From positions 124,001 through 188,000 of the forward strand of contig JASTWF010000323.1 in NCBI GenBank assembly GCA_030390025.1: 64,000 bases of DNA. Reading direction: 5' to 3'. The DNA is from Squalus acanthias (lineage: Eukaryota). The notes under the pieces are model-generated. The model saw only the letters and a list, made by a program, of their open reading frames with translations, did no database searches and had not been told where the DNA came from. Positions 3,545 to 64,000 of the stretch are shown here, piece by piece (the first letter of the stretch is position 1; the number at the start of each line of letters is the position of its first letter). The position numbers and the translations under genes are program-made.

Positions 3545-3790
3545 AATCAGTGTCAGAGTGAGAGAGAGAGGGACAGAGAAAGCCGAGTAAAGTGAGTGGG
3601 TCAGAGGGAGTGAGATGAAGAGAGGGAGAGAGATAGAGATGGCCCAAGTGGGAAACAGAGACATTTATAGAGAAAGATAAAGGGTGAGAGGGGAGAGAGG
3701 CACAGAGGGAGATGAAAGAGAAAGAGAGGCAGATAACTGGGAATGCTACATGCTGTTCCAGGAAAGAGAGACACGGCATGAAAGGGCGAA
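3545..3790. repeat. GA-rich low-complexity tract
   Basis: Purine-rich (GA)n-like sequence. Confidence 0.7.
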
Positions 3791-3809
3791 CAGATACACC
3801 TTATCAGAA

Positions 3810-11700: not shown

Positions 11701-11704
11701 GCAA

Positions 11705-11975
11705 TACAAAACAACAACAACATGTATTAACATAGCGCCTTTAACGCAGTAAAACGTCACAAGGCGCTTCACAGGAGTGATTATCAATCAACATTTGACA
11801 CCGAGAAACGTAAGGCGATATTAGGGCTGATAACCAAAAACTTGGTCAAATAGGTAGGTTTTCAGGAGCGTCTTGAGCGAGGGAGAGAGCTTTACAGACT
11901 GAATTCCAGAACATAGGTCCCAGGCAGCTGAAGGCACGGTCACCAATAGTGGAGCGATTAAAATCCGGGATACAT
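11705..11975 (-). mobile_element. L2-type LINE/SINE 3' end
   Basis: (aac)n tail followed by atagcgccttt; reverse strand reads LKTLLKTYLF, GDRAFS. Confidence 0.7.
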
Positions 11976-16026: not shown

Positions 16027-16152
16027 GTCGGACTCTGAGAACAGTAGATTGGAATGTTGCAACAATGGATCAGAATCTGAGAACAGTTGATTGGAATGTT
16101 ACACCAATGGGTCGGAATCTGAGAACAGTAGATTGGAATTTTACAACAATGG
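16027..16152 (+). repeat. 3 x 42-bp tandem repeat spanning the GPCR start codon
   Basis: Units start at 16027, 16069 and 16111; each ends in ATGG; the translated units encode (D/G)xNLRTVDWNxTxM. Confidence 0.92.
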
Positions 16153-16287
16153 GCAGGAGTTTATCCTGGCAGTTTGACATTCTTTCAGAATATTATGATA
16201 TAATATCATTAGGCTGGCGGATCTATTACGCACTTCAGATCATTCAATACATTTACTATCCGCTCCTTGCTGCTGTTGGAGTTCCAG
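16065..16287 (+). CDS. GPR139/GPR142-like class A GPCR, coding exon 1 (exon 1a)
   Basis: MDQNLRT...IQYIYYPLLAAVGVP is an N-terminus plus start of TM1; ends at consensus donor CAG|GTAAGT (16288), phase 1; G+TG gives V and joins exon 2 in frame. Confidence 0.88.
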
Positions 16288-16554
16288 GTAAGTCTCTCTC
16301 TCCAACTATTAATTCGATAAATCATGTTTTATTGAATTACTGTGCTTGTCATTTACTCTCCCCTCCTTTCTGTTGTTAGTGTTCCTGGTAAGTCTTTGTA
16401 TCTAACTATTAGCTCTGCAAACCTTTGCTAACTGTGCTACTGTTCTCGTAAGTTACTCTCTCATCTTTGGAGCTGTTGTTGTCCGTGGTAATTCTCCATA
16501 TCCATCAATTAGATCTGTAATCCTCTGATTCACCAGGCCTGCCGACCGCCATCG

Positions 16555-34972: not shown

Positions 34973-35484
34973 GGGGTAAAAATTCACTTGGTTGCGCCTC
35001 CCGTTAGCGCCTTAAGAGGGCGCTAATGGGGCGTTAAGCCGCTAACGCCCGGGCGCAGCGCTGTTTGCGCCGCTCGAGAACTTAACTTGAGATTGTGCGG
35101 CGGCGCTAAAACTTACCGCTGCGACCACCTGCGCGCGCAGATTGTGACGTCATTCCATGGTGCAACGCCCTTGGGGCGCCCCGGAGCGGAAATTGAGTGG
35201 CGCCCCCTGCCTTACCGCCTGGCGCTTCCAACGACCGGAAGACTGGAACGTTATCAATCGGTGTGGGGCTGGGGGGGGGCGCTATTTAAAGGGGGCCTCT
35301 TCCTGTCTTTTTCTGTGGCCGACATTTAAGCACCACTCGTTCTGAGAGAGAGAGAGAGATTCAGAGAGAGAGAGAGAGAGACTTCTACATTGACTCAACG
35401 CTTTGTGAGGTAGTTTTGCCTAGTTCATCCTAACTTTGTTGCTACTTTAGTTGCTGTACCTCATACTTTTCTGGCAAAGAGAAT

Positions 35485-36645
35485 ATGGGGGCTGCAATGA
35501 TTGGGGGCGTCGTCCTGCTCCAGCTGAATCGGAGGATACTGAGACGCAGACAGAGAGTGGCAATGATGGCCAGACGGAGTAGGGCCATCAGGCGCATGTA
35601 CAGGAGAGCTTACCCTCCCAGGGTATATCGTGAACAGCTCTCCTACATCCATATGTCCGAGGAGCTGTGTTTGCGAAGGCTGCGATTCCGCAAGGAGGTG
35701 GTCACTGAGCTCTGCAACCTGCTGCAGCCAGATCTGCAGCCTCAGCTGAGGTCCAGGACGTCTCTGTCGGTGGCAGTGAAGGTCACAGTGGCTTTGAACT
35801 TCTACGCCACTGGCTCATTCCAAGCTGCTGTTGGGGACCTCGCCAATATCTCCCAGTTTGCGGTGCATTGCTGCATCCGGCAGGTCACCAATGCCCTCTT
35901 CAGAAGGAGACGAGACTTCATCTCTTTCCCTATGACCCCAGACAAGCAGCGTGACCGTGCTCTGGGCTTTGCGAGGGTAGCGGGCTTCCCCATGGTGCAG
36001 GGCGCCATTGACTGCACGCATGTGGCTTTGCATGCTCCGCGAGAGAATGCAGAGGAATTCAGGAACAGAAAGGGGTTCCATTCCTTGAATGTGCAGTTGG
36101 TCTGTGACCACAGACAGGTGATACTCGCTGTCAATGCCCACTATCCGGGCAGCTGCCACGATGCTTTCATCCTGCGCCAGACTACTGTGGCAGAAGTTTT
36201 CGAGGCACCGCATCAGCCAGTTGGTTGGCTTCTGGGGGACAAGGGGTACGCATTGAGCACCTGGCTGATGACACCGCTCCGTACGCCAAACACCCCTGCT
36301 GAGCTGCGGTACAATGAAAGCCATCAAGCAACCAGGAACATTATTGAGCGCACAATCGGCGTGCTGAAACAACGGTTCCGCTGTCTGGACCATTCCGGAG
36401 GAGCCCTGCAGTACTCGCCTGAGCAAGTTTCGAACTTCGTAGTCGTGTGCTGCATGTTGCACAACATGGCAATCCTCAGGACCCAGCCAATGCCACCAGG
36501 CCTTGTAGCACCACCAGAGGAGGAGGAGGAAGAGGAGGAACAGGACGAGGACGATGATCATCAGCAGCACCAAGGCAGGAGGGCGGCCCACAATGGTCAA
36601 ACTGCAAGGGCCGTCCGTCAACGACTAATAGCAAGCCGCTTCTAG
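35485..36645 (+). CDS. Harbinger DDE transposase (HARBI1-like), 386 aa, uninterrupted
   Basis: GAIDCTHV, NRKGFHSLNVQLVCD, YPGSCHDA, LLGDKGY, IERTIGVLKQRFRCL; TATA-like tatttaaa at 35283. Confidence 0.95.
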   Translation: MGAAMIGGVVLLQLNRRILRRRQRVAMMARRSRAIRRMYRRAYPPRVYREQLSYIHMSEELCLRRLRFRKEVVTELCNLLQPDLQPQLRSRTSLSVAVKVTVALNFYATGSFQAAVGDLANISQFAVHCCIRQVTNALFRRRRDFISFPMTPDKQRDRALGFARVAGFPMVQGAIDCTHVALHAPRENAEEFRNRKGFHSLNVQLVCDHRQVILAVNAHYPGSCHDAFILRQTTVAEVFEAPHQPVGWLLGDKGYALSTWLMTPLRTPNTPAELRYNESHQATRNIIERTIGVLKQRFRCLDHSGGALQYSPEQVSNFVVVCCMLHNMAILRTQPMPPGLVAPPEEEEEEEEQDEDDDHQQHQGRRAAHNGQTARAVRQRLIASRF

Positions 36646-36939
36646 GGCCCCTGCCATTGCTACAAACACTAATCAACCCAGCACGCAACCCCTAAGCCGG
36701 CCAAGGCACCAATAATTCCAACCACCAGCCATGTATATTTTGAATACAGAAACTTATTTATTTTACAAACTCTGTGTGTGTCAATTCCTCATGACAAACT
36801 CATAGAAATAAACACAAAAAAACAGTCAATAACATAACTGGTTCTCACAACCTGGAGATAATGTCCAAAACACTAAACAAAAGTTGGACCATGAACCTCG
36901 GCCTTTAATAAAAAAATGACCAGCATTTTGGCACACCTC

Positions 36940-38719
36940 CTACTTTTTGCCCTTCGAGGGTGATCTCCTTCCCTTGCGCACTTCCCCCCTTCTAACCCTA
37001 CTGCTCCTCCGTAATGGGACTTCAGTGGCTGCAGCAAGGCTGGTGGAAGGCTGCTGCTCGTCAGACCCTGACACTGCAGATGCCCCTGAAGGACGGCCTC
37101 GACCACTTCTGGGCCTGGAGGGCCCGGCTGCAGACTGCACCAACTCTGCATGGGCGGCAGCAGTCTGTCCTACAGGCGGTGGCAAGTGCAGTGGAGAAGT
37201 GACAGTGTTGGCAGCAGGAATGCTGTCATCGTGAGAGAGGCCAGCAACTCCCTGCTCGCCCGACACACTGGCACTCCCACGGGGCAGCTCTTCAGCATCC
37301 GGAGCAATTTGCCGGAGAACAGATTGCTGGCCTGCTGCGGCGCGGTGACAGCCCTGGGGACATGTGCACGAACCATCGAGGTTGGCAGCAGTCTGTGCTC
37401 GCGTGGCCTCCATCTGTGTCTGTATGAGAGCAGTCAGAGGTGGGATCACGGCAGCCAGTGACTGAATTGCAGCACTAAGCGTTAGTGTGGCATCCGCCTG
37501 TGCTACAGCGAAGTGCTCCACACTCCTTGCCAGTGACTCAATGCAATCGGGCACCCTTCCCACTGCACCCATGAGCTCAGTGTGCATGCCCACCGCCTGG
37601 GTGTTCATTTCTGCAATCAGCCGCTCCTCCTCTGCGTCCATTGCAGTAGGAGTGTCTGGCATACTCTCCCTCTGGGGAGAAGGCCCCCGTTCTTCCCTAC
37701 CCCCCCCATGGCGTTGCTGCAGCCCGCTGGGTCCTGGAGCTTCACCATCATCAGCCCCTTCCCCCCTGCTCCCCTCCGGGGAAGGCGTGTTCCCAGTGTG
37801 GGCATGGGCTTCCTCGGGAGAGGGTGGCACTGATGCTCCGGCTTCCTCTTCCTCCTCAGCTGCAGCATCACTCCCAGTGGCAGCTTCAGGGCCCGTCTCC
37901 TCAGCTGGTGAATCACCATCTGAAAGCAGGGAGGTAAAGAGTGGCTTTAGCGTGAGGGCAGGGTGGCAGTAAGGGAGGAATAAGTGCAGCGAGTTAGCAA
38001 GTTGGATTGAAAGTGTCAAAGGCTCGTATTGTGAGGGACAAGTGGAAGGACAGAGGACAAAAAGGTGATGACCTTACCATTGCTGTCCAGAACGGGGTCG
38101 GCGTCTCCAGTGGCGACGGGACCGATCACCCGGCTGGCCACAATCCTGTGGACGCGCTCCTCAAGATCGCTGAGGGGTTGCAGCTGAGGCCGCCCTCCAC
38201 CTGTCCGTTGCTGCTGTCTCGTACTATGCACCAGCTTGGCCTGCAAGAAAAAGGACAGCATCTGAGTAAATATACAGCCATGGTCTTGCCTGATGTGCCT
38301 CCCATAGGTGAATAGCCCTTACTGTATGCAAAGTGTGGAATGTGTGTGTGTGTTTGATGAAAGGGCCATAGGTGTTGGATGAGTGTTGTGCGTTGGGGTT
38401 TTAAGACCCTCTGGCCATAGAGTGAGGTTGAGATGGAGGGATGGAGAGGTATTGAGAAAAAGCCACTCACCCTGACGACCCGAGTGAGGTCGTTGAACTT
38501 TTTGCGGCGTTGAACATGGGTCCTGGGCACCATGCTCCTGGAGGAGACGCTCTGAGCCACCTCCCTCCACACTCTTCTGAACTCGCGTGGCAAAGGCCTC
38601 CTGCCACTCTCTGGGAACAGCATGCATCGTCTGCGCTCCACTGCGTCAACCAGAGCATCCAAGGCCCGCTCGGTGAAGCGATGAGCGCGTTCTCTCACCC
38701 TCTCCATGCTTGGCAGCAA
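36940..38719 (-). CDS. Harbinger Myb/SANT (trihelix) DNA-binding protein; exons 38719-38471, 38240-38078, 37919-36940; 463 aa
   Basis: RFTERALDALVDAVERRR...WREVAQSV...RTHVQRRKKFNDL; both introns GT-AG with compatible phases (0, then 1); TGGG motif in exon 2; acidic and coiled-coil middle, basic C-terminus. Confidence 0.88.
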
Positions 38720-39077
38720 AATGGATTACAGGTCTCTCCAGGCTGAGATTCAAGGCTGCAATGAGCAGGGTGTGGCTGGGGAGCAAGTGCCCCCCCCCCC
38801 CCCCCCCCGCTTTTAGAAGTGTCCGGCGCCAGTGTGTCTGTGTTCCCTCGCTAACTGGCAGCAGCTGCGCTGCGCTCGTGCGCTGAGTTAGGGCCTCACT
38901 CCTTGGCCTTTGCGGCTTAAGAGAGGTGTGCAGCGCCTACTTTAGCGCTCCACTCACCTCCCGGGGCGGTAAAAGTGAAGTTTCATGTCAGTGCCGATAA
39001 TTAGCACCAGGCGCTAATATTTGCGTCCGGACGATATTTGCGCCCCAAATGGGGCGCGACCTAATTTCTACCCCATA

Positions 39078-42000
39078 GTGTTGGGAGGGGGGGGCGGTGG
39101 AGGATACAGGGGAACAGGAAAATGAAAAGTCAATGAGAAATGAGAAAGCAATGGACCAAGCTGGAGATGGGGGAAATAATAACCAGGATGTGAAAGGAAG
39201 GGAAAGAATGTTTAAAAATAAGAGTGTAACAGAAAAAAAGGCCAAAACAAGGGAAAATGGTAAAAACACAATGTTAAAGGCTCTATATCTGAATACACGC
39301 AGCATTCGTAACAAGATAAATGAGTTGACGGCACAAATAGATAGAAATGGGTATGATCTGATCGCCTTTACAGAGACGTGGTTGCAAGGCGACCAGGGCT
39401 GGGAAATGTATATTCCAGGGTATATGATAATTCGGAAGGAAAGAAAGAAAGAAAGGAAAGGGGAATGGGATGGCTTTGTTGGTAAATGATGGGATCAGTG
39501 CGGTGGTCAGAAGTGATATTGGTTCAGAAAATAAACATGTAGAATCGGTTTGGGTGGAGATAAAAAACAACAAGTGGAAAAAGACACTGATGGACGTAGT
39601 CTACAGGCCCCCGAACAGTAGCAATGCTGTTGGACAGAGTATAAATCAACAAATAATGGATGCCTGTAAAAAGGGTAAGGTAATAATCAAGGGTGATTTT
39701 AATCTCAATATTGATTGGACAAATCAAATTCACCATGGTGGCCTGCAGGAGGAGTTCAAATAGTGCATCAGGGATGTTTTCCTAGAACAGTAAATAGAAA
39801 TGTTGCAGTGGTAGGGGATAGTGTTATTAGGGGGATAGATAGAGTTCTCTGCAGCCGAGAGCGAGTGTCCCGTGGGCTGTGTTGTCTGCCCGGTGCCAGG
39901 GTTAAGGACATCTCCAGTGGGCTGGAAAAAACTTGCAGTGGGAGTGGGTGGATCCAGTTGTCGTGGTCCATGTTGGTACAAACGACTTAGATAGGACACG
40001 GAAGCAGGTTCTTTTAAAGGAGTATGAGCAGCTCGGGTTCAAATTAAAAAACAGAACCTCAAGGATATTAATCTCTGGATTATTACCTGAGCCACGAGCG
40101 AATTTGGCTAGGACAAATAAAATTAGAGATTTAAATGAGTGGCTCAAAGACTGGTGTGGGAGAAATGGGTTTTGCTTCCTGAGACACTGGCACCAGTAAT
40201 GGGGCAGGAGGGAGCTGCTCCGTTGGGACGGGTTTCACTTGGCCAGTGTTGGGACTAGAGTCCTGGCGGATCATATAACTAGGGCTGTAGAGAAGGCTTT
40301 AAACTAACTAGTGGGGGGGCGGGGGGGGGGAGATTCCGAGAGAGCAAATAATAAAACTGAGAACAGAGAAGGTCATAGACTTAGGTAGCAGTGGGGAAAT
40401 TAAAAAAACAGAGTGTGTCAGGAAGGGGCAGAAGTTATGGAGTAAAAGGTAAAGTAATAAAAAGGGCAAAAGCAGGAACTAAGTGTCACAAAACATGTTT
40501 GAAAGTTCTCTATCTGAATGCACGTAGCATTCGTAACAAAGTAGATGAGTTAATGGCACAAATAACTACATATGGGTATGATCTTGTGGCCATTACAGAA
40601 ACATGGCTGCAGGGCGACGATGCCTGGGAATTAAACATACCAGGTTATTTAACGATCAGGCAGGACAGGCAGGAAGGAAGGGGTGGTGTGGTGGCTATGT
40701 TAATAAAGGAAGGAATCACTGTAATACAGAGAAATGATATTGTGTCAAAAGATCAGGATAATGAAACAGTTTGGGTGGAGATAAGGAATAATAAGGGGGA
40801 AAAAAAACACTAGTGGGCATAGTCTATAGGCCTCCGAACAGTTGCAACTCTGTTGGACGGAGTATCAATCGGGAAATAGTTGAGGCTTGTAATAAGGGAA
40901 CATCTTTAATTATGGGGGATTTTAACTATCATATTAATTGGACAATTCAAATTGTGCAGGGCTGCCTTGAAGATGCGTTCATTGAGTGTATTAGCGATGG
41001 GTTTCTTGAGCAGTATGTAACCGAACCGACCAGGGGGCAAGCAACCTTAGATCTAGTCCTGTGTAACGAGACAGGATTAATTAAAAATGTCCTAGCAAAG
41101 GATCCCCTTGGAATGAGTGACCATAACATGGTTGAATTCCATATTCAATTAGAGGGTGAGAAGGTTGGATCTCAAACAAGCGTGCTAAGCTTGAATAAAG
41201 GAGACTAAGAAGTTGTGCGAGCGGAATTGAGTAGAGTGGATTGGGAAAATAGATTACAGGGTAAGACGATACATGATCAGTGGTGTACATTTAAGGAGTT
41301 ATTTTACAACTTCCAAAAAATATATATTCCACTGAGAAGAAAAGGGTGTAAAAGAAAAGACAGTCATTCGTGGCTAAGTAAAGCAATTAAGGATAATATC
41401 CGACTAAAAACAAGGGCTTATAAGGTAGCCAAATCTAATGGGAGTATAGAGGATTGGGAAAACTTTAAAATACAGCAAAAAATAACAAAAAGATTGATTA
41501 AGAAAGGGAAGATAGATTATGAAAGTAAATTAGCAAAATATATAAAAACAGATAGCAAGAGTTTTTAAAGTTATATAAAAAGAAAAAGGTTGTCTAAAGT
41601 AAATGTAGGTCCCTTGGAGGATGAGACCGGGAAATTAATGGATGGCAATATGGAGATGGCAAATACACTGAATGAATATTTTGTATCAGTCTTTACAGTA
41701 GAGGACACAAAGAATATCGCAACAGTGGACAAACAGGGGGCTATGTGGGGGGAGGCGCTAAACACCATCAAAATCACTAAGGAAGTGGTACTCGGTAAAA
41801 TAATGGGGCTCAAGGCGGATAAATCACCTGGACCTGATGGCTTACATCCTAGGGTCTTGAGGGAAGTGGCGGTAGGGATTGAGGATGCTTTGGTAATCAT
41901 TTTCCAAAACTCCCTGGACTCAGCAAAGATCCCGGCAGTAAAAAAGGCAGTAGACAGAAGGCTGGAAACTATAGACCGGTTAGCGTAACATCTTTGGTAG

Positions 42001-45000: not shown

Positions 45001-45885
45001 AGAAAACTCAAAGAATTTGCAAAGGGCTATAGGCAGGCTAGGTGAGTGGGCAAACATTTGGCAGATGGAGTATAATGTGGGATAGTGCGACGTTATCCAC
45101 TTTGGCAGGAAAAATTAAAAAAAAGTATTATTTAAATGGAGAGAGATTGCAAAATGCTACAGTTAGAGAGATCTGGGCGTCCTTGTGCGCGAAACACAAA
45201 AAGTTAGCATGCAGGTACAGCAGGTAATCAAAAAAGCAAATGGAATGTTGGCCTTTATTTCAAGGGGGTTGGAGTATAAAAGCATGGAAGTCCTGCTAAA
45301 ACTGTACAAGGTAAGGTGAGACCACACCTTGAGTACTGCGTACAGTTTTGGTCTCCTTATTTAAGGAAGGATATATTTGCATTGGAGGCAGTTCAGAGAC
45401 GATTCACTAGGTTCATTCCAGAGATGAGGGGTTTGACTTATGAAGAAAGGTTAAGCAGGCTGGGACTATACTCTTTGGAATTTTGAAGAATGAGACGTGA
45501 TCTTCTCTAAACGTATAAGCTACTGAGGGGGCTCGAAAGGTTAGATGCAGAGCAGATGTTTCCCCTCATGGGAAAATCTAGAACTCGGGGGCACAGTCTC
45601 AAAATAAAGGGTCGCCCTTTTACAACTGAGATGAGGAGGAACTTCTTCTCTCAGAGGGTCGTAAATTTGTGGAATTCTCTGCTCCAGAGAGCTGTGGAGG
45701 CTGTGTCATTAAATACATTTAATGTGGAGATAGGCAAGATTTTGCAAGATAAGGGAGTGAAGGATTATGGAGAGCGGGCTGGGAAGTGGCTTTGAGCCCT
45801 AGATCAGCCATGATCTTATTGAATGGCGGAGCAGGCTCGAGGGGCCAAGTGGCCTATTCCTGCTCCTATTTCTTATGTTCTTATG
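39078..45885 (+). mobile_element. CR1 LINE ORF2 (host; 39078-39792 plus 43516-45885) split by a nested CR1
   Basis: Endonuclease reads ...DVFLEQ | YLMEPTREQAIL across the insertion; TSD aacagta (39786-92) / aacacta (43516-22); tail ttcttatgttcttatg at 45870-45885. Confidence 0.88.
39793..43515 (+). mobile_element. Near full-length CR1 family A (ORF1 SGNH esterase part, endonuclease, RT, 3' UTR), frameshifted
   Basis: VVGDSVIRG, VVVHVGTNDL; YLNARSIRNK; VPQGSVLGP, KFADDTK; (ttcttatg)n tail. Confidence 0.93.
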
Positions 45886-48800
45886 AGCTTAGAAGGGTGT
45901 GGAGGGAGGTGGGTCAGCACGTCTCGTCGAGGAACCTGGTTCCGAGGACCCACACCCAATGTCGGAAGAAGTTCAACGACCTCGCTCGGGTGGTCAGGGT
46001 GAGGACCTGCTTTACAATACCTCTATATCCCTCCATCTGAACTTCACTCTGTGCACAGAGGGTTTAAAAACCCAAATGCCCAACACTCATCCAAGACCTA
46101 TGGTCATCTCATAAAACACACACGCACATCCCACACCTTGCACACATTAATGGCTATTCTACTAGGATAGGCACATCTGCCAAACACATGCCTGCACACT
46201 GTAACGGTTATTCAACTGTAGTAGGCACATCTGCCAAACATGCCTGCACACTCACTCACACGCTGTGTTTTTTCTTGCAGGCCAACCTCTCTTAGAACAG
46301 ACGGGAGCAGCAACGCACGGGAGGAGGACCGGGAAAACTACACCCCCTGACTCAGTTGGAGTACAGAGTACACAGGATCGTTGCCAGCCATGTCATAGGT
46401 GCCATGGCCACTGGAGAGGTCGACCACCTTGGGTCAGCAATGGTATGTTCATCTGCTTTCTCACCTCACTCATATCACTTGCACCTCACAACACCAGCCT
46501 TTAACGCATTCAATCCAACTAACTGTCACCAGTCCTTGCTTCCTTCCTGCATCCATCGCCCGCACGCTAAAGCCACTCTTGTACATTCCTGCTTTCAGAT
46601 AGTGAACCACCAGCTGACCAGTTTGTCCCTCAGACTGCCAGTGGCAGCGATGTGTCGGATGAGGAAGAAGAGGAAGCCGGAGCCTCACTGCCTGCGTCTC
46701 CCGAGGGTGACATATCAGACACTGGGGCCACGCCTTCCCTGGAGGGGAGCAGGGTGTTAGGGTCTGATGAAAGCGAAGTTCCTCGTCCGGCGGGCTGGAT
46801 CAATTCCATGGGGGTAGGGAAGCTCGCGGACCAGCTCCCTTGAGGGTGAGTAGGCGCGCGAGTTCTGCTGAACAGGATTCGGCTGAGGTCCTCGACATCG
46901 CTGCCAAGAATACCCAGGTCTTGAGCAAGCAGACTGAACTGTTGGGTGCAATGGCAAGGGTGCCCGACAGCATGGATGGACTGGCTAGGAGCGTGGAGGA
47001 GTCCGCCACTAGCACAGCTATCATCTCTGCACAAACCCTTGAACACATCGCTGCCTCATTGCAGAGGATGGTTGAATTGCAGGGAAACTGTGATGAATCA
47101 GAGCCGCCTGTAATGGGTGAGCTGACACGATCCATTGCAGCACAGGCTGACGCAAAACAATGGCTTAGTGATGCAATTGGGTCATTGGCTTGTGCCATCC
47201 ATTCTCAGGCTGCTCTCATCCAGTCTCAGATTGATGTCACACAAGCACTGACTGCTGCCAACCTCGCTGGGTCGCCCACAGTCCCCCTGGAATCTCACAG
47301 TACTGCCGTGGAACAGCAATCTGTGTTCGAGCAGATTGCTCAGGATGCTATGGTTCTGCTCCGAGAGAGTGGCAGTGTGTCGGTCGAGCAGGAAGGTGCT
47401 GTCCTCTCTCAGTTTGACAGCATTCCTGCTCCCACCACTACCAATTCCCCATTGCAATTGGCATGGCCTGCAACACAGCCAGCCCAGACGGCTGCAGCCC
47501 ATGCAGAGTTGGTGCAGTCTGCAGCCGGGCCCTTCCGGCCCAGAGCTAGTCAAGGTTGTTCTTCAAGGCAATCTCTGGAACCAGCATTCAGCAGCCTTCC
47601 ACCAGTTTGCTGCAGGCACTGGGGCCACATTATGGAGGAGCAGTAGGGTGGGAAGGGGTAAAGTGCACAGGGGATGGAGGTGACCCTCGAAGGCCCAACG
47701 GTGCAATCTGTAAATAAATCGGGGGAATGTTTGTGCGGAAGGTTCTATTTTGTTGTTATTATATTTGTTGACTGTTTTGCCGTTTATCTCCATGTTGTGA
47801 GAACGAGTTTCGTTAGTTCATGAATTAATGGGTTTGTTTCCAACTGTTTGTCCTGAATAAATGGGACAGATTTTGGAATATAATTTTTTTTTAAATTCCA
47901 GCTTTACATCTTTGGTCATTTGACTCATTGCAGCTTTGCCTTTCAATAGCGGGTGCGGGATGCTTTCAATGATGTGCTTCTACATCCCACAGCCATCTTC
48001 TCTGTAAGGGGTTAGAATAGGTGTCTTATGAACTTTTCACGGATGGCTCTTGCAGTGGGAACATTGTGCGCCTCCCTCCCAGGTTGGTGCTGCTGATCCT
48101 CCTCTTCATCCTCCACCTCCTCCTCCTCTCCCTCTTCCTTCACTTCCTCAGGTGGTGCACCAATCCCTGGTGGCAATGGCTGGATCGTCTTGATTGCAAT
48201 GTTATGAAGCATGCAGCATACAACAATAAAGAGGGAGACTCACTCGGGGGAGTACTGCAGGGCTCCTCCTGAGTGGTCCAGACGTCGGGGCCGTTGTTTC
48301 AAGACGCGGATCGTATGCTCAATGAGGTTCCTGTTAAACTATGGCTCTCATTGTATTGCAGCTCAGCAGGGGTGTTGGGGTTACGGAGCGGTGTCATCAG
48401 CCAGGTGCAGAGTAAATAGCCCTTGTCCCCGAGGAGCCATCCACTAGGTTGATGAGCTGGTTGGAAGGATAAAAGTATCGTGGTTACTGCCAGGATAGCG
48501 GGAATTGACGGCGTGTTTGAGCTGTCTGTGGTCACAGACCACCTGGATATTCAGAGAGTGGAAGCCCTTGTGGTTTCTGAACACCTCTGCATTTTCATGA
48601 GGTGCCCACAATGCCACATGCAGGCAGTCAATGGAGCCCTGAACCATGGGGAAGCCCACTATCCTCGAAAAGCCACATGCGCATTCGCGTTGTTTGTCCC
48701 GGGTCATGAGGAGAGATGTACTGGCGTCTCCTCTTATACAAAGCCTCTGACACCTCTCGGATGCAACAATGAGCATGAACTGGGAGATATTCGGAACCGC

Positions 48801-49483
48801 TGACTTAGAAATTCAGAGCCACTGTCACCTTCACTGCCACCGACAGAGAAGTCCTGGTCCTGAGCTGAGGCTGGAGCTCTGGTTGAAGGATGTGCCAGAG
48901 CTCAGTGACCACCAGCTTGCTGAAGCGCAGCCATTGGAAACACTGCTACTCAGATAAATGGACATAGGAGGAAAATTGCTTCCTGAATACACTGGGAGGA
49001 TAAGATCTCCTGTGCAGTGGCCTTTTGGCCCTCATCCTTCTGGCCACGTTTGCCACACTCTCTTCACCTCTGCTGCCTCTGAAGGTGAAGTTGGACGATG
49101 ACGACGCCCCGAGTTTTTGCAGCCCCCATTGATATCGTTAGAAGGAAGGTGAAATAAAAATGAAGCTCCAAAGAGGTACTCAGGACCCAAAACTCCTTCG
49201 GTCAGCTCTCTCCCTCTCAACCTGCATGTCAAAAATAGCTTCAATACTTGAAAACGTTCCCCTCTACCTGTCGTTCCCAGCGGCAGGCGGAAAGGCAGGG
49301 GGCGTGAATCAATATCCGGTCTGGGGCGCTACCGGGGCGTTGCACGCTCGCATGACGTCATCATCTGCGGCCGCAGGAGATCGTGGCGGTAGTGATTAGC
49401 GCCAGCGCAAAACGACTGGTCAATTTCGCGAGCGGAGCTGAAACAGCGCCAAGGGGAGGCGCTAACCAACCGACTTTTCTCCC
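45886..49483 (-). mobile_element. Older, degenerate PIF/Harbinger element in opposite orientation, truncated on the left
   Basis: Myb/SANT remnants on + (WREVGQHVSSR...QCRKKFNDL, same intron positions; ORF 46840-47646); transposase remnants on - at 48013-49130 (GSIDCLHV, LLGDKGY); TIR-like gggagaaaagtcggttggttagcgcc ending at 49483. Confidence 0.88.
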
Positions 49484-52400
49484 GCGTGTTTAACTGTGAT
49501 TCTCTCTTTGTCGTTCCCCATCCCATCTGTGCTGCCGTCGGATATTCATTCTGAAGGTGATCTCGTGTTACCAAGATTCAACTCCAGCAATTTAATGAAG
49601 GTGACATTTTATTTAACGAATTTACAATCAACATTGGTAACAGATCAGAAGAATGCTGTCTTGTTTACGGAGACTTTTCACTTAATGGCGACAAGTCAAC
49701 AACCTGTAACGTTAACTCTGGTTCTTTCTCTCTCCACAGATACTGCCTGACCCGCTGAGTATTTCCATATGTTTCTCTTTTCATTTCAGATTTGCAGTAT
49801 CCGCAGTATTTTGCTTTTGGTTTCATCTAATGCTCGTAACGTTACTTACAGAGTAACAGGAACAAATCCTGGCAGATCACATCCACATCTTTAAATGCCT
49901 GAAATATCCACTAATCATTTAGTTCCAGTCAGTGTCTCCTTTCCCACCCTCTCCAGTTCTACATTAGTGGCACTGCTTCTGATGGTTAAAGTAGGAATAC
50001 AAGGATAATTTACATTCTCAAAAAATGTTCATTCAGCCAGATTTCAATACATTTATTTCCAATCATTGCTTTGAATTTACAATTGGCTCCCATGCCCGTC
50101 TGTCAAAGTTCAGTGGATCTCTCAGTGAGACCCAGAGTGATTCTCTATTGCCTCCTGCTGTACTTCAGGATAAATAATCCCAGCTGATTGAAATTGAAGT
50201 AGTGAGGTTAAGATATTCCTTTTATATCTTCTCGTCTAATATTCTCTGCACAAGTTGGATCAACAGGTGAAAAAGAACAAGGATAAATATCTTCCATTTG
50301 TGTTCACAAACTTTACAACAGCATTCGGCGGCACTTTGCAAGTGTGATTTCGATCGTGATAAATGCATTTGGTGGGACATTACCTGGTTAATCATCACTA
50401 TTTACTTTAATTCAGAGTCCATTATTTGCAAAGTTACTCCGCAAACCTTCCCTTGAATGAGCTACAATTTGTGTATTTCAACAAAAATGCAGAAAATTAA
50501 TCTTCAAAACATATCTGATAGCCCAGTTATCTGAATAACTGCAGTGAACTTTTATTTATTATCAGAGCATTATCATATTACATCCGTACATTTTACATAA
50601 AATTGCCTGTAATTATTGCATGCCAATGTTTGCAGTTTCTCTATTTTGCCGTTGTATTCATTTCCAGTTCTAAATATAATGGATATTCTAACCAGAGGCA
50701 GGAATCCAATCGAGATTTCCCGTTCCCCATTCACAGGTGCACAGAAGCAAACTGCACCACTCCAAAATAAAAACAGAAAACGCTGGAAAAACTCAGCAGG
50801 CCAGGCAACATCCGTGGAGAGAGAAAGAGAGTTAACGTTTCAAGTCGGAACCCTTCGTTGACAGCTCCCGGGACACGAAGGCTTCATGAGAGGTTCTGGT
50901 CCTTTGTCATAGAGTCATACAGCATAGAAAGGCGCCCTTCGGCCCATCGTCTCCGCGCCGGCCAACAAGCCCTATCTATTCTAATCCCATTTTCTAGCAC
51001 TTGGTCCCTAGCATTCTAAGCTATGACGTTTCAAGTGCTCATCTAAATGCGTCTTCAATGTTGTGATGATTCTTGCCTCTACCAACCTTTCAGGCACTGA
51101 GTTCCAGATTCCAACCACCCATTGTCAGAATTTTTTTTCCCTCAAATCCGCTCTAAACCTCCTGCCCCTTAACTTGAATCTATGCCCCCTGGCTTTTGAC
51201 CCCTCTACTAAGGGGAAATGTTCCTCTCTATCTATCATATCAATGGCTCTCATGATTTTGTGCACGTCAATCTGGTCTCCCATCAGCCTTCTCTGCTCTA
51301 AGGAAAACAACCGCAGCCTGTCCAGTCTCTCTTCATAGCTAAGCGCTCCAGCCCCGTTAATATCCTGGTGAATCTCCTCTGCACCCTCTCCAATGCAATC
51401 ACATCATTCCTATAGTGTGGCTAACAGAACTGCACACAGTATTCCAGCTGTGGTCTAACTAACGTTTTGTATAGCTCCATCATAACCTTCCTGCCCTTAT
51501 ATTCTCTGCCTTGGCTAATGAAGGCAAGTATCCCATATGCCTTTTTAACCACCTTATCTACCTGTCCTGCTGCCTTCAGGGATCTATGTACATGCACACC
51601 AAGGTCCCGCTGATCCTCTGTCCTTCCTAGGATCCTACCATGCATTGTGTATTCCCTTGCCTTGTAAGTCCACCCAAAATGCATCACATCACACTTTTCA
51701 GGGCTAAAATCCATTTGTCACTGTTCTGCCAATCTGACAAACCCGCCTATATCGTCCTGTAGCCTGGGGCTTCCGTCCTCGCTATTTACCACTCCACCAA
51801 TTTTCGTGTCATCTGTGAACTTACTGATCATTCCTCATACATTCATATCTAAATCATTAATGTACACTACAAACAGCAAAGGACCGAGCCCAAATCCTTG
51901 CGGTATACCACTGCACACAGGCTTCCAGTCACAAAAACAATCTTCGACCATCACCCTCTGCCTCCTGCCACTAAGCCAATTTTGGAAACAATTAGCCAAA
52001 TTGCCCTGGATCACATGGGCTCTTACCATCTTGACCAGTCTCCCATGTGGGACTTTGGCAAAAGCCTTACTGAAGTCCATGTAGACTACATCAACTGCAC
52101 TACCCTCATCCAAACACCTAGTCACACCCTCGAAAAATTCAATCAAATTGTTTAGACATGATCTCCCCCTGTGAAAGGCATGCTGACTATCCTTGATTAA
52201 TCCTTGAATAATAGTTCTATGTTACGTGTCCTCCAGTCCTCTGGCACCTTCCCTGTGTTCAAAGAGGTTCTGAAAATTTGTGTCAGAGCCCCTGCAATTT
52301 CCTCCCTTGCCTCATACAGCAGCTTGTGATACATCTCGTCTGGGCCTGGGGATTTATCCACATTTAAGCCCGCTAAAGCCGTAAGTACCTCCTTCCTCTC

Positions 52401-54630
52401 AATAATAATTTGTTCAAGTATATTACAATTCCCCTGCCTGATTTCTAAGGCTACATCGTCCTTCTCCATAGGGAACACAGATGCAAAATATTTATTTGAA
52501 ACATCACTTACATCTTTCGGCTCTACACACAGATTGCCACTTTGGTCCCTAATGGGCCCTACTCTTTCCCTGTTTATCCTCTTGCCCTTAATATACTTAT
52601 GAAACACCTTCGGATTTTCCTTTATTTTGCTCACCAGTGTTTTTGTCATGCCCCCTCTTCGCTCTCCGAAGTTCTTTCTTAAGTACCACCCTGCATTTTC
52701 TATACTCCTCCAGGGCTTCCACTGATTTAATCCTTTGTATCTGCCAAAAGCATCCCTTTTTTTCCTAATCCTGTATTGTATATCCCTTGACATCCAGGAT
52801 TCCCTGGGCTTCTTGGTCCCACCCTTGACCTTTACAGGAACATGATGACGTTGTACTTTCTCTATTTGCTTTCTGAAAGTCTTCCACTGCTCTGATGTGG
52901 ATTTTCCTGCATGTAGCTTATTCCAATCCACTTTGGCCAGGTCTTGCCTTATCATATTAAAATCGGCCTTCCCCCAATTTAGAACCTTTATTTCTGGTCC
53001 ATCTTTTTTCCAATTCCTTGACGACCTTAAATGTCGCCGAATTGTGGTCACTGTCACCAAAATGCTCTCCTACTGACACTTCTACCACTTGCCCGGGTAC
53101 ATTCCCTAGAATTAGGTCCAGTAAGGCCCCTCTCTTGTAGGACTTTATACATGCTGGTTCAAAATAGTCTCCTGGATGCACTTTAATAATTCTGCACCCT
53201 CTAAGCCTTTCACATTCTGACTATACCCGTTAATATTGGGGAAGTTGAAATCCCCTACTATTAATACCCTATTATTTCTACACTTCTCTGAGTTTTGCCT
53301 ACATATCTGTTCCTCTATCTCGCCCTGACTGTTTGGGGCCCTATAGTACACTCGCAGCAAATGGCTTGCCTCCTCTTTGTTTTTAAGTTCTACCCATATG
53401 GACTCATCAGAGGAACCTGCTAAGATATCATCCCTCCTTACAGCAGTAATTGACTCGTTAATTAATATTGCGACACTCCCACCTCTTTTACACCACTCTC
53501 TGTCTCGGCTGAAGATCCCATACCCCGGAATATTGGGCTGACAGTCCTGCCCCTCCCTCAACCATGTCTCTGTGATAGCAACAATATCATACTCCCATGA
53601 GTTCATCAACACCTACAATTCGTCTGCATTACTCGCAAGACTTCTTGCATTAAATAAATTCCATCCAGCCTTGCCATACTCCCTTGTGCCGTTACATATT
53701 TACTCTGCCTTCCAGGCTGACTTGTTTTTTCCTCTATATTTGGCTGTGCATCACCCACTACTATAGCTCCACACCGTATCCCATCACCCTGCCAAGTTAG
53801 CTTAACCCACCCCCGCCCGCCCCCACAGTACTACCAATCCTCCCCGCAAATTTGTTGGTCCCGCTCCGGTTCCAGTGCTACCTGTCCGACTTTTTCCTTC
53901 CCCAGGAGCAGACCCAGTGATCCAGGAAACTAAAGCCCTCCCTCCTGCACCAGCTCTATCCTTCTATTCCTATACTCACTAGAACGTGGCACCGGGAGTA
54001 ATCCAGAGATTACAACCTTTGTGGTGCTGCTTTTTAATCTGCTACCTAGCTCCCTAAATTCGTGTTGCAGGACCTCATCACTCTTTCTACCTATGTCGTT
54101 GATACCAATGTGATCCACGACCTCTGACTGTTCACCCTCCCCATTCAGAAAGCCCTGCAGCCGTTAGTGACACACTTGACCCTGGCACCAGGGAGGCAAC
54201 ATACCATTCTGGAGTCATGTCTTCGGCCACAGAAACGTCTATCTGTTCCGCTTACGATAAAATCCCCTATCACTGTTACTCGAACACCCTTTTCCTCCCC
54301 TCATGTGCAGCTGAGCCACTCGTAGTGCCACGGATTTGTCTCTTGCTGCATTCCTCTGAGAAACCATCAACCACAGCAGTACCCAAAACGCAAAATCTGT
54401 TGTTGAGGGAGATGGACCCAGGGGACTCCTGCACTTCCTTCCTAGTTATTTTACTTTGGCTGGCGGTCAGCCATGCCCTTTCTGCCTGTGCACTCTTTAC
54501 CTGCGGTGTGAGCACCTCTTTAAAGATGGTTTCCCCGAAGATCTCAGCTTCGCGGATGGTCCACAGTGTCTCCAGCCGCAGCTCCAACTCCGAAACGCGG
54601 ATTTCGAGTTGCTGCATCTGGAGACACTTA

Positions 54631-55496
54631 GGGGTAGAAATTAGGTTGTGCCCCATTTGGGGCGCAAATATCGTCTGGACGCAAATATTAGCGCCTGGTG
54701 CTAATTACCGCCCCGGGAGGTGAGTGGAGAGCTAAAGCAGGCGCTGCACACCTGTCTTAAGGCGCAAAGGCCAAGGAGTGAGGCGCTAACTCAGCGCGCT
54801 GGCGAAGCTCATGTAATGACAGTCAGCAATGGAACACACACACAATGGCACGGGCCAGTTCTTAAAGGGGATGGTTAATCTTGCTTTCCATCCACATCCT
54901 GTTCATTGCAGCCTTCAATCTCGGCCTGGAGAGACTTGCACATCAAATGTGCTGGAAAGAACAATGGAGAGTACCAGGCAAAGAGCTCAGAGTGCAGCTC
55001 CCACAATCTCTGCTAAATCGATACAAGAAATGGCAAATCAAAATGAACCTGCAAAGTGCTGCTCAGTACCCAAAACTCCTTCACACAACGTTGAATCTCT
55101 CCAGAAGTCTCTCCCTCTCTCTCTCAGAATGCGTAGTTCAAAAATGCCACCAACAATAAAAGACAGGAAGAGGCCCCCTTTAAATAGCGCCCCCCCCCAG
55201 CCCCACAGCGATTGATAGCGTTCCAGTCTTCTGGTCGTTGGAAGCGCCAGGCGGTAAGGCAGGGGGCGCCACTCAATTTCCGCTACGGGGCGCCCCAAGG
55301 GCGTTGCACCATGGAATGACGTCACAATCTGCGTGCGCAGGTGGTCGCAGCGGTAAGTTTTAGCGCCGCCGCACAATCTCAAGTTAAGTTCTCGAGCGGC
55401 GCAAACATCGCTGCGCCCGGGCGTTAGCGGCTTTGCGCCCCATTAGCGCCCTCTTAAGGCGCTAACGGGTGGCGCAACCAAGTGAATTTTTACCCC
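54631..55496 (-). mobile_element. Non-autonomous Harbinger deletion derivative (866 bp), inverted relative to 34973-39074
   Basis: Same TIRs (ggggtagaaatt ... aatttttacccc); terminal ~340 bp and ~170 bp nearly identical to the full element; flanks TTA / ATA. Confidence 0.93.
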
Positions 55497-58400
55497 ATAG
55501 AAACATAGAAAATAGGTGCAGGACTAGACCATTTGGTCCTTCGAGCCTGCACCGCCATTTAATGCGTTCTTGGCTGAACATGCTACCTCAGTACCCCATT
55601 CCTGCTTTCTCACCATACCCCTTGATCCCCCCAGTTGTGAGTATTATATATAACTCCCTTTTGAATATATTTAGCGAACTGGCCTCAACAACCTTAAGCG
55701 GTAGAGAATTCCACAGATTCACCACTCTCTGGGTGACAAAGTTCCTCCTCATCTCAGTCTTTAATGGCTTCCCCTTTATCCTTAGACTGTGACCTCTGGT
55801 TTTAGTTTCCCGTAACATTGGAAACATTCTGCCCGCATCTAATTTGTCTAAACCAGTCAGGATTTTAAACGTCTCTATAAGATCCCCCCTCATTCTTCTG
55901 AACTCCAGAGGATACAAGTTCAGTTGATCCAGTCTTTCTTGATATGTCAGTCTGGCCATCCCAGGAATCAATCTAGTGAACCTTCGTTGCACTCCCTCAA
56001 TAGCAAGAATGTCCTTCCTCAAGTTAGGAGACCAAAACTGCACACAATACTCCAGGTGTGGCCTCACCAAGGCCCTGTACAACTGTAGCATCACCTCCCT
56101 ACTCCTGTACTCAAATCCCCTTGCTATGAAGGCCATCATGCCATTTGCTTTCTTGACTGCCTGCTGCACTTGCCTTCCCACCTTCAGTGACTGATGTACC
56201 ATGACATCCAGGTCTCCTTGCACCTCCCCTTTCCCTAATCTGCCACAATTCAGGTAATAGTCTGCCTCCCTATTTTTAACACCAAAGTGGATAACCTCAC
56301 ATTTATCCACATTGTACTTCATCTGCCATACATTTGGCCATTCACCGAACGTGTCCAAGTCACTCTGTAGCCTCCTAGCATCCTCCTCATTGTTCGCACT
56401 GCCTCCCAATTTAGTTTCATCCGCAAATTTGGAGATATTACAATTAATCCCTTCGTCCAAATCATTAATATATAATGTAAACAGCTGGGGCCCCAGCACC
56501 GAACCCTGCGGTACCCCGCTGGTCACTGCCTGCCATTCTGAAAAGTACCCATTTACTCCTACTCTTTGTTTCCTATGTGCCAACCAGTTCTCAATCCACG
56601 TCAACACATTACCCCCAATCCCATATGCTTTAACTTTGCACACCAATCTCTTGTGTGGGACCTTGTCGAAGGCCTTCTGAAAGTCCAAATACACCAGATC
56701 TACTGGTTCCCCCCCCCCCCGTCCACCCTATTGGAAACATCCTCAAAAAATTCCAGAAGATTTGTGAAGCATGATTTCCCTATCACAAATCCATGCTGAC
56801 TTGGACCTATCATGTCGCCACTTTCCAAATGGTCTGTTATGACATCTTTAATAATTGATTCCATCATTTTACCCACCACCGATGTCAGGCTGACCGGTCT
56901 ATAATTCCCTGCTTTCTCCCTCCCTCCTTTTTTAAAAAGAGGGGTTACATTAGCCACCCTCCACTCCTTCGGAACTGATCCAGAGTCTAAGGAATGTTGG
57001 AAAATGATCGGCAATGCATCCACTATTTCCAAGGCCACCTCCTTAAGTACTCTGGGATGCAGACCATCAGGCCCTGGGGATTTATCAGCCTTCAGTCCCA
57101 TCAATTTCCCCAACACCTCTTTCCGACTGATAAGGATTTCCCTCAGCTCCTCCCTCTTACCAGATCCTTTGATCTCTTTTATTTCCGGAAGGTTGTTTGT
57201 GTCCTCCACAGTAAACACCGAACCAAAGTACTTGTTCAATTGATCTGCCATTTCTTTGTTCCCCATTATGACTTCCCCTGTTTCTGACTGCATGGGACAT
57301 AAGAACATAAGAACATAAGAAATAGGAGCAGGAGTAGGCCAATCGGCCCCTCGAGCCTGCTCCGCCATTCAATAAGATCATGGCTGAAATGATCCTAACC
57401 GCCAATCTACTATCTATCACAGAACCATCTCCTGCATCTAACAGAATTGCACACACGAAATAGGAGCAGAATCAGGCTACACGGTCCCTGGGCCCGCTCC
57501 ACTACCCAAAGGGCCATGACCGATCCGAACCTAGACTCATGTCCAAATTCCTGCCCGCTCCCCGTAACCCTTAATGCCCTTTACTTCTAGGAAACTGTCT
57601 ATTTCTGTTTTAAATTTATTTAATGATGTAGCTTCTACAGCTTTTTGTGGCAGCATATTCCATGGACCTACCACCCTCTGAGTGAAGTAGTTCCTCCTCA
57701 TCTCAGTTTTGAAAGAGCAGCCCCTTATTCTAAGACTATGTCCCATAGTTCTAGTCTCACCCGTCATCGGGAACATCCTCCCCGCATCCACCCGATCCAA
57801 CCCCTTCACAATCTTATATGTTTCAATAAGATCGCCTCTCATTCTTCTGAACTCCAATGAGTAGAGTCCCAATCTACCCAACCTCTCCTCATATGACCAC
57901 CCCCTCATCCCCGGGATTAACCGAGTGAACCTTTTTTGCACTGCCTCGAGAGCAAGGATGTCTTTCCTTAAGTAAGGACACCAAAACTGTATGCAGTATT
58001 CCAGGTGCGGTCTCACCAATACCTTGTACAACTGAAGCAATACCTCCCTATTTTTATATTCTATCCCCCTAGCAATGAAAGCCAACATTCCATTTGCCTT
58101 CTTAATCACTTGCTGCACCTGCATACTAACCTTTTGAGTTTCGTGCACCAGGACCCCAAGATCCCTTTGCACTTCAGTACTCTCCAGTTTCTTGCCATTA
58201 AGATAATAAATTGCTCTAGGATTTTTCCTGCCAAAGTGCATCACCTCACACTTTCCAGTGTTGTATTCCATCTGCCAAATCTCTGCCCACTTACTTAGCC
58301 TGTCTATGTCCCCTTGCAGGTTTTTTATGTCCTCCTCACTCACTACTTTCCCTCCCATCTTTGTATCATCTGCAAATTTTGATATGTTACACTTGGTCCC

Positions 58401-61394: not shown

Positions 61395-62296
61395 TGAACT
61401 TAGTGACGATTGTGATCCTGTCTCGGGGAAAGTGCGGTCTCTCCAAATGTGTCACTCGCTACCTGGTGGCCATGGCAGTGGCGGATCTACTGGTCATTAT
61501 TCTGGACCTGATATTGAGGCACATTCCGATTGTTTATATGGAACAGTTTCATTTCGTGCGGTCCATCCCAGTGTGTAATATCCACGCCGTCCTGCTGTTC
61601 GCAGCCACAGACTGTTCTGTCTGGTTCACCGTCACTTTCACTTTTGATCGATTTGTGGCCATTTGTTGCCAGGAGCTGAAAACTAAATATTGCTCCGAGA
61701 AAACTGCGGCTGCGGTTCTGGGAACAGTGACTGTGCTGAGCGGTTTAAAGAACATCACATGGTATTTTATGTTCAGAGGTCAGTATTGGCTTCAGAACCT
61801 CCCCTGGTTTTGTGATGTCATAGACGATGTTCGGTATTCACGGGTCTGGGGAACAATTGAGTTCCTTCATTACATTCTCACCCCGGGGGTACCATTTATG
61901 GTGATTCTGCTGCTCAATGCTTTCACCGTCAGACACATTTTAGTTGCCAGCAGAGCCCGCAGGAGACTCCGGGGTCCCAGCAGTGGGGACAGTCCCAGAG
62001 ACCCAGAGATGGAGAGCCGCAGGAAATCAATCATTTTACTGCTTGTTATCTCCGGCAATTTCATGCTGTTATGGGCAGTGTTTATGGTGTATTCTATATG
62101 GAGCCGGATGTGGTTTTTGGGGTATTATTCTGTAATTCTACATGAGTATGTTCTGGACCTGGGATTCATGTTGCAGCTGCTAAGTTGCTGCACAAACACT
62201 GGGATTTACGCCGTGACTCAGGCTAAGTTCAGAGAGCAGTTGAAAAATCTGGGGAAATATCCCTTTACTCTGATTGTAAAATTCATTAAAGGATGA
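61395..62296 (+). CDS. GPR139/GPR142-like class A GPCR, coding exon 2 (end of TM1 to C-terminus)
   Basis: Polypyrimidine tract and cacAG acceptor (61393-94); NLVTIVIL, MAVADL (TM2), FDRF (TM3), PF..ILLLN (TM5), NTGIY (TM7 NPxxY variant), FRE helix 8; no stops. Confidence 0.93.
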
Positions 62297-62349
62297 GAAT
62301 AATAGGAGACTTTGCAGCCTGAGAGTTTAGAGCTCCCTGGGACTGATAT

Positions 62350-64000
62350 TATGGCGCACCGCACAAAGTGGCGGCTATGGAGGACCCGAAGAAAATGGCG
62401 GCTCTGTGGGCCGGGCACAAAGATGGCGGCTCAGGTTCACGTAAAAAGATGGCACTTCTGGTGAGCAGTACAAAGGTGTCAGCTCTGGGGCCCAGTACAA
62501 AGAAGGCGGCGCCCGCTCTCCGCACAAAGATGGCGGCGCTGGGGCCCCGCACAAAGAAGGCAGCTCAGTTGCCCCGCACAATTATGGAAGGTCTGGGAGA
62601 TTCGCACAAAGATGGCGACTCCGGGGCTCCGCACAAATATGGCGGCACCCGCGAGCGGCAAAAAGATGACGGCTCTGGGCTCCAGCACAAAATGGCGCCA
62701 ACCGGGCAAAGCATAAAAATGGCGGCACCCTCGCCCAGCACAAAGATGGCGGCTGTGTGGTCCCGCGCAATGATGGCGGCTCTGGGGACCTGCTTAAATA
62801 TTGTGGCTCTGCGGCCCAGCACAATGACGGCGGCACTGGGGCCCAGCACAAAGCTGGCGTCTTCGGGGGCACGGGACAAAAATAGCATCTCTGGGCTCCT
62901 GCCTAATACAAAGATGGAGGCACTGGGCCCCACACATAGATGGCGGCTCTGGGGGCGCGGAATTTAAATAGCGGCTATTCTGCCAAGGACAATGATGGCG
63001 GCTCAGGGGCACAGCACAAAGATGGCGGCTCTGGGGCACAGCACAATGATGGCGGCTCTGGTGCCGCGCACAAAGATGGCGGGACTTGGGCCCAGCACAA
63101 ATTTGGCGGCTGACCGGAAAAAGATGGCTGCTGCGGAGACCCGCTAAAAATGGCAGCTCTGGTGCCTTGCAGAAAGACGGTCGATCTGTGGGCCACGTGC
63201 AAAAATGTCGGATCCGGTGCCCCGCACAAAGATGGGGGTACTGGGGTGCAGTACAAAGATGGGGGTACTGGGGTCAAGCACGAAAATGGGGGCACCCGCG
63301 ACCCGCACAAAAATGGCGTCTCTGGCCACCCCGCCCAGCTCAAATTTGGCGGCTGTGGGGCCCTGCACAAACATGGCAGCACCTCCGACCCACACAAAGA
63401 TGGCGGGACTTTGTCCCAGCAAAAAGATGGCGGCTGACCGCACAAAGATGGCGGCAGCGGGGCCCCGAAACAAAATTGCAGCTCCGGTGCCCCACACAAA
63501 GATGGGGGCTCTGGGGCTGCGTACAATAATGGCGGCTGTGAGGACCCGCACAAAAATATCTGCTCTGGCGCCCAGCACAATAATGGCGGTTCTGGGGCCC
63601 AGCACAAAGCTGTCGGCTCTGGGGCCCCGCACGAAGAAGGCGTCTCTGCGGACTCCTCACAAAAATGGCGCCACCCGCGCCCCGAAAAGCTGGCGGCTCT
63701 GGGTCCCCGGACAGAGATGGCGGCTGTGGGGGCCCGCAGAAACATGGCGGCCCTGGGGCCCAGCACAATGATGGCGGCTTTCGCACCCCGCACATAGATG
63801 GCGGCGCCGAGGCCGCGGAAAAAATGGCGGCTCTGGGACCTAGCACAAAGATGGTGGCTCTGGGCATCGCACAAAGGTGGCGGCTCTGGGGGCCCCGCAA
63901 AAAGATGGCTGCTCTGGCGTCCTGCACAATGTTCCCGGCTCTTGGGGCCCTGCACAAAGTTGGCGGTTCTGCGGGCCGCGCACAATGAGGGCGGCTCTGG
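62350..64000. repeat. CpG-rich ~27-bp satellite, about 60 copies, carrying YY1-type AAGATGGCGGC motifs; runs off the window end
   Basis: Consensus gcacaaagatggcggctctggggccca; 9-aa KMAALGPST periodicity in spurious ORFs. Confidence 0.93.

Follow-up and report, generated by a model that had tools for sequence, protein, structure and literature searches.

Receptor gene and genomic setting

The window, that is, the whole 64,000-base stretch of DNA analysed here, was found to be shark-type DNA rich in CR1-like, L2-like and Harbinger pieces and to carry an intact two-exon GPR139-like gene, the spliced product of which is 374 aa in length with 0 internal stops. Exon 1 (16065..16287, plus strand) contains an N-terminal 42-bp coding repeat of the NLRTVDWN type, which is also present in named relatives, and is separated by an intron of 45,107 bp from exon 2, the main coding exon (61395..62296, plus strand), with its acceptor CAG at 61394 and its TGA stop codon at 62294-62296. 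Exon 2 matches Pfam 7tm_1 (E=1.6e-18) and has 2408 relatives among database proteins at E<=1e-20. The best 120 of these 2408 are all named 'probable G-protein coupled receptor 139' and are all from sharks, nearly all of them from Heptranchias, Heterodontus and Pristiophorus, with the ten best sharing 72–81% identity.

Several other repeats were observed around the gene. The 14-residue repeat in exon 1 (window 16027-16153) is of variable number, with about 1 to 6 copies across shark paralogues, and includes an N-glycosylation-type NxT motif. Degenerate repeats of the exon 1 donor region are found at 16370-16500, 3' of the true donor at 16288, and are possible alternative donors. An AT-rich 51/52-bp array at 10960-11710 showed no 26-bp sub-period; it precedes exon 1 by about 4.4 kb, with transposon pieces in between. 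Between 30032 and 34812, blocks of a 61/63-bp satellite and 3'-end fragments of CR1 follow each other in turn, about five times over, which suggests a compound repeat composed of a CR1 tail and a satellite. A Harbinger/PIF element at 34974-39081 has an open transposase frame of 403 aa (DDE_Tnp_4) and, running in the opposite direction, a Myb/SANT frame, and its ends are CpG-rich (observed/expected, O/E, 1.10 and 0.79). A second, inverted relative of it at 45885-55500 is more decayed and interrupted by CR1 pieces. An Rfam search of the whole window returned 0 matches.

Structure of the tandem array

The stop codon is followed by a spacer of 55 bases (62297..62351, plus strand), which is at least 80% alike in several paralogues from three organisms, and then by a GC-rich 27-bp minisatellite (62352..64000, plus strand). 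The latter was identified by TRF (period 27, 61.1 copies, 65% matches, 6% indels) and by wraparound alignment, and its consensus contains the YY1-type motif AAGATGGCGGC. The array continues past the window end, its right end lying outside 64000. These data bear out the sequence-only reading made previously of this DNA, in which a tandem array was placed directly 3' of the receptor stop codon, beginning about 55 bp after the TGA and with no canonical AATAAA. No AATAAA occurs from 62200 to 64000, and the sole ATTAAA in the same interval (at 62285) falls within coding sequence. As no canonical polyadenylation signal precedes 64000, the array probably lies within the 3' UTR of the receptor gene. 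The motifs do lie in one orientation, as had been claimed, with GCCAT being found 0 times on the plus strand and 32 times on the minus strand within the array; this is an automatic result of head-to-tail repetition and carries no weight.

A motif-free wraparound alignment resolved the array into 63 rows, of which 60 full units were analysed, the first two and the last partial unit being dropped. The spacing of these units is exactly 27 in 40 of 59 intervals, and they are approximately 80% identical to the consensus and approximately 67% identical in pairwise comparison. No fixed higher-order period was detected within the array, with mean unit identity being 0.64–0.70 at all distances to 40 units. 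Two flank subtypes can be distinguished, an ACCCGC-type flank being carried by 7 of the 60 units, with the core identical between the two. An internal block duplication (63069..63452, plus strand) with an offset of 324 bases, or 12 units, was detected over 60 bases at 88% identity and is tagged by matching 21-bp deletion units at 63094 and 63418. The array thus possesses the hallmarks of a minisatellite, namely head-to-tail units of 10–100 bp, variant units and block duplication. Its transition/transversion ratio is low (0.51), a value which is not special, as other repeats of the window range from 0.27 to 1.21.

No other copies of the array were identified in the remaining 62.3 kb of the window, where profile scores did not exceed 11.4 bits, compared with mostly 15–43 bits for units in register, and where the best blastn match had E=1.0. 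On the basis of these scores an origin from the local Harbinger, CR1 or L2 pieces was rejected. Among the 34 TRF rows of the window there was no telomeric repeat array.

Coding potential and RNA structure

As 27 bases correspond to 9 codons, the array could in principle encode a repeat, whether in a frame of its own in one of the two directions or as an extension of the receptor by stop-codon read-through. The longest stop-free frames are indeed long, about 206–207 aa on the plus strand and 341 aa on the minus strand, but frames of such lengths are usual when arrays are resampled (p=0.60 and p=0.34, respectively), and 17 of the 59 unit spacings shift the frame. No Pfam families were found in the frames. 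The plus-strand frame has no protein relatives at near or longer lengths, while the minus-strand frame returned 5 matches, all of them to unrelated short-period repeat proteins, and none of the best 120 of the 2408 GPR139-like models has a tail matching the array. A coding role was consequently rejected and is considered extremely improbable. The RNA structure predicted for the first 299 nt of the array was no better than that of shuffled sequences (z=+0.56).

YY1 motif content and retention

From EMSA work it is known that YY1 requires GCCAT, the CG and the two T (PMC11602158), and these critical bases were used to build the mask AANATGGCG. All 8 critical positions are present in 17 of the 60 units, corresponding to 17 sites per 1.65 kb, while on neither strand of the other 62.3 kb was an intact site detected. 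By stricter or looser patterns the array has 6 perfect AAGATGGCGGC sites, 9 of AARATGGCGGC and 19 of ATGGCGGC. The array had been described as about 60 YY1-motif repeats, which is correct in that the repeat unit carries a YY1 motif, but most units (43 of 60) lack an intact site.

It had also been proposed that the core is preferentially retained over degenerate flanks. A column permutation over the 60 aligned units gave a mean identity of 0.844 for the core compared with 0.771 for the flank (p=0.033), but stratification by base raised this to p=0.11, so that the proposal holds only weakly. A star simulation with base-specific rates, in which subtypes are ignored, gave p=0.009 for the gap between core and flank. 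When the 7 units of ACCCGC type and the 2 deletion units were dropped, the values became 0.843 and 0.806 (p=0.13, stratified p=0.39). The 5' flank GCACA, which lies outside the motif, is equally conserved (0.86), and in a ranking of the 27 circular windows of 11 bases the core takes 6th place. The excess of the best window is 0.10 in the array and slightly lower, 0.05–0.09, in six minisatellites nearby. The small core signal can be explained by homopolymer slippage in the G/C-run flank together with one amplified variant.

These data bear on the possibility that this is a functional YY1-loading array. In that case every gene of the receptor subfamily would have, on its 3' side, a hypomethylated cluster of sites which serves as an enhancer tether or loop anchor and thereby contributes to the choice of the paralogue to be expressed out of hundreds. 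In its favor, the 17 intact units exceed the expectation from random columns (p=0.05), there are no intact sites elsewhere in the window, and the YY1 mask comes first among the 27 slid masks, with 17 intact units compared with 16, 16 and 16 for the next three. Furthermore, the free N is the most variable core position, with the consensus letter in 38 of 60 units, and a top-ranking mask combined with a variable N is the pattern that would be expected from selection on YY1 binding. Against this, the site has been lost in 43 of 60 units, the mask test gives p=0.15 when matched for base and p=0.33 for the main subtype alone (12 of 51 units intact), and the GCACA flank is as conserved as the core. 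Judged from the letters of the array, selection on the motif appears weak and not robust, and the functional reading is regarded as distinctly unlikely. YY1 could nevertheless bind the 17 intact sites if these were unmethylated.

CpG content and methylation

The array was also claimed to have a CpG density far above that of most of the window. Its density is 6.8 per 100 bases compared with 2.4, and its O/E is 0.72 compared with 0.45, which upholds the claim in general, but the two Harbinger ends described above exceed the array in O/E. The array O/E is not below the value of the consensus (0.60). Transitions at CpG relative to GpC have a ratio of 1.72 in the array and 1.97 at positions 2-17, compared with 1.3–2.0 in pairwise comparisons of dispersed transposon copies from the same window (1.74 for Harbinger pairs). 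In counts, 18 of 120 CpG and 18 of 180 GpC showed transitions in the array (p=0.21).

Transposons have been described as hypermethylated in a cartilaginous fish (PMC5437953). The match in CpG decay between array and transposons suggests that the array decays like DNA which is presumably methylated, and this counts against a hypomethylated site cluster. The earlier description of the array as unmethylated is thereby left unsupported rather than refuted, the comparison being a weak test. Array methylation may even be low, given the O/E of 0.72 against 0.60 and the p of 0.21. Window-wide, dispersed repeats were observed to have transition/transversion ratios of 0.7–1.1 and a CpG excess of just 1.3–2-fold. 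Mammalian repeats have a much stronger CpG excess and transition pattern than that found in this window. The low CpG hypermutability limits what can be deduced about methylation from CpG in sharks.

Copies in the same species and in other organisms

Contigs of four of 21 listed sequencing runs were compared with the window at 80% likeness, these being X1 (organism A, the same species as the window), X6 (organism B), X7 (organism C) and X15. In X1, 8736 contigs were matched to the window, of which 2352 fit two places; the other contig tallies given below for each run are examples among the pieces listed and not totals. The array repeat is abundant in the DNA of its own species and is present in two other organisms, every bin of the array being covered by contigs in one DNA-like run from each of the three organisms.

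Among the longest collinear pieces, copies in X1 have 16 differences in 184 nt (62881-63063) and 28 in 266 nt (63591-63853), and copies in X6 have 9 in 214 nt (62398-62611) and 7 in 181 nt. Collinear copies are therefore 89–96% alike, compared with approximately 0.67 between units in pairwise comparison, which indicates that the copying of arrays as blocks came later than the divergence of their units and that the arrays have remained stable thereafter.

The joint between the stop-codon side and the array, from 62367 to 62994, was found both in X1 and in X7, in at least one contig per run, where its shorter side measures 75 and 89 letters, respectively. A variant letter of the spacer region at 62358 occurs in at least 7 contigs of X1, at least 3 of X6, at least 8 of X7 and at least 1 of X15. 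Together, the joints in two organisms and the spacer variants show that the array flanks other GPR139-like paralogues, as had been suggested for testing, in a subset only. Loose ends at 62299 were seen in at least 6 contigs of X6 and at least 10 of X7, and a 2166-nt contig of X7 departs from the window sequence at 62327, from which it follows that some paralogues have other sequence downstream. That the array follows the stop codon at a constant place in several paralogues and in two organisms is in favor of a functional YY1 array, while the divergence of other paralogues just past the stop (62299, 62327) is against it.

A second alternative concerns the source of the repeat. The array could be one copy of a dispersed or clustered satellite, or a set of tandem 5' or terminal monomers from a transposon located past the window end, which landed behind one ancestral receptor gene, with most copies being unrelated to the receptor family. 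The summed contig depth in X1 is 331,670 and 366,516 over the units most like the consensus, compared with about 1,220–3,970 at the spacer; summed depth is no copy number and was used as a hint alone, but it hints at many more units than the stop-array junction accounts for. Consistent with such a source, the right end of the array lies beyond the window, and tandem YY1 motifs are known from transposon promoters, as in mouse L1 Tf (PMC11602158). In addition, a pattern scan of metagenomes for the 15-base core returned 3 contigs, all from an unrelated dispersed repeat which shares just that core and carries CACAAAGATGGCGGC two or three times. The presence of the core in an unrelated repeat implies that the motif by itself is not rare in animal repeats. 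Arguing the other way, no copy was found among the many transposon pieces (CR1, L2 and Harbinger) in the rest of the window, stop-to-array joints occur in two organisms, and the TRF rows include no telomeric array. A dispersed origin is on balance rather unlikely. The YY1-like core sites of the metagenome contigs lie at 4083-4290 in L001, 1075-1155 in L002 and 70-210 in L003, with an inverted copy also present, and the cores of L001 and L003 were observed to be spaced 27 bp apart.

None of the twenty runs containing part of the window is on record as RNA. Run X15, which is RNA by guess alone, covers the array thinly and covers the intron too, so its array cover is uninformative on expression or on the extent of the 3' UTR. 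A search of viral contigs for the array repeat gave 0 matches. No paper was found on the 27-bp repeat or on the flanks of shark GPR139-like genes; subscription papers as well as Repbase and Dfam, which lay outside the search, may catalogue it. The motif was not found in passages of PMC11406177 or in 2 of its supplementary files, and satellite tables of that study may be elsewhere.

A different repeat predicted behind horn-shark receptor genes

Four of the 120 listed models, all of them Heterodontus francisci GPR139-like proteins (P0089, P0101, P0102 and P0105), were observed to extend past the usual stop into repeat peptides, the tails of P0089 and P0101 being identical. According to the gene models, these tails are different frames of one GC-rich repeat with a period of 32. 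Of 1000 shuffles, 4 reached the self-match at lag 32, and 3 and 0 reached the two cross-matches to P0089, while the match of P0105 with P0102 was not significant (264 of 1000). The 32-bp repeat would accordingly be positioned directly behind the horn-shark receptor stop, as far as the models allow. It has no match to the 27-bp consensus on either strand, and when back-translated it contains motifs which we take to resemble an RFX X-box and a GC box.

Among the side results of this analysis, the different GC-rich repeat which the horn-shark models show in this slot is of the greatest interest, and it also lends something to the functional YY1 reading. A broader proposal is that shark GPR139-like genes, with hundreds per genome, use lineage-specific 3' repeats, built from sites for factors of housekeeping promoters, as per-gene chromatin hubs by which receptor expression is chosen or coordinated, which is considered very unlikely. 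If it were true, the 27-mer YY1 repeat described here and the 32-mer RFX X-box-like and GC-box-like repeat of horn shark would be two instances of it, and the former would be a YY1 array of the Peg3 kind in a non-mammal and with no link to imprinting.

Origin and significance

The reading preferred here, with a probability of roughly 0.6, is that the array is an old, inherited gene-flank minisatellite of a GPR139-like subfamily, in which the YY1 sites were probably carried along as passengers. By this reading, slippage and unequal exchange would have multiplied a unit which happened to hold a YY1-type motif into a head-to-tail array downstream of an ancestral receptor gene, after which the units would have decayed by about 20%. 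Whole arrays would then have been copied as blocks together with the gene end during duplication of the receptor family, a step of which the collinear copies are observed and the mechanism is conjectural, and related species would have inherited them. The same-strand YY1 motifs would be a by-product of tandem amplification. It is also plausible that, as a side effect, paralogues recombine ectopically through the array.

An inherited gene-flank minisatellite would represent an apparently undescribed shark repeat by which one subfamily of the expanded GPR139-like genes can be recognised. It could help to date duplications and to address the question of whether flanking repeats drive the expansion through unequal recombination. 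Should YY1 prove to occupy the arrays, they would provide a first handle on the regulation of a very large family of shark orphan receptors, and clustered YY1 control elements would reach back to cartilaginous fish.

Comparison with known systems

The Peg3, Xist and Nespas clusters of mammalian imprinting control regions resemble the array in having many strong YY1 sites on the same strand at a similar density (PMC4196374, PMC2761279), with Peg3 having 12 YY1 sites per 2 kb (PMC2761279). This similarity of density to the Peg3 and Xist clusters is a further point for a functional YY1 array, which has 17 AANATGGCG and 6 AAGATGGCGGC sites in 1.65 kb and 0 elsewhere in the window. However, the Peg3 repeat motif is GGCGCCATCTT, the exact reverse complement of which occurs 0 times in the shark array, where motif retention is weak. 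Elements of the Peg3 and Xist type are single-locus and located in a promoter or first intron, the Peg3 array adjoining the promoter within the first intron, whereas the shark array belongs to a high-copy family and is positioned 55 bases 3' of a stop codon. The mammalian elements are furthermore differentially methylated and have had their YY1 function tested, while the sites of the shark array are predicted from sequence. The role of insulator or allele-specific switch which had been proposed for the array finds no support. According to PMC4196374, YY1 sites do not block enhancers but may serve to tether them, a statement which makes an insulator role less likely and was also counted against a functional array. 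Differences in locus number and position separate the shark array from the Peg3 and Xist elements. Genomic imprinting is, to our knowledge, not known in sharks.

The macrosatellite D4Z4 is a tandem repeat bound by YY1. The macrosatellite DXZ4 is likewise bound (PMC3287207) and is similar to the array in being a tandem repeat with a YY1 site in each unit; were YY1 to occupy the array, occupancy would follow chromatin state, as in DXZ4. DXZ4 differs in having homogeneous units of kb size with proven binding, compared with candidate sites in 27-bp units which are approximately 33% divergent. The 5' UTR monomers of mouse L1 Tf are also tandem units each with a YY1 site, and their YY1 monomers act synergistically (PMC11602158), an observation in keeping with a functional array. 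The L1 Tf monomers are, however, an active retrotransposon promoter, whereas the shark array has no adjoining transposon body inside the window.

In human 19p12, beta-satellite travels with the KRAB zinc-finger genes. Unlike the beta-satellite cassette, the shark array sits 3' of a stop codon, is GC-rich and has a period of 27, but the two are alike in their fixed position beside a large gene family and in a spread which appears to follow gene duplication.
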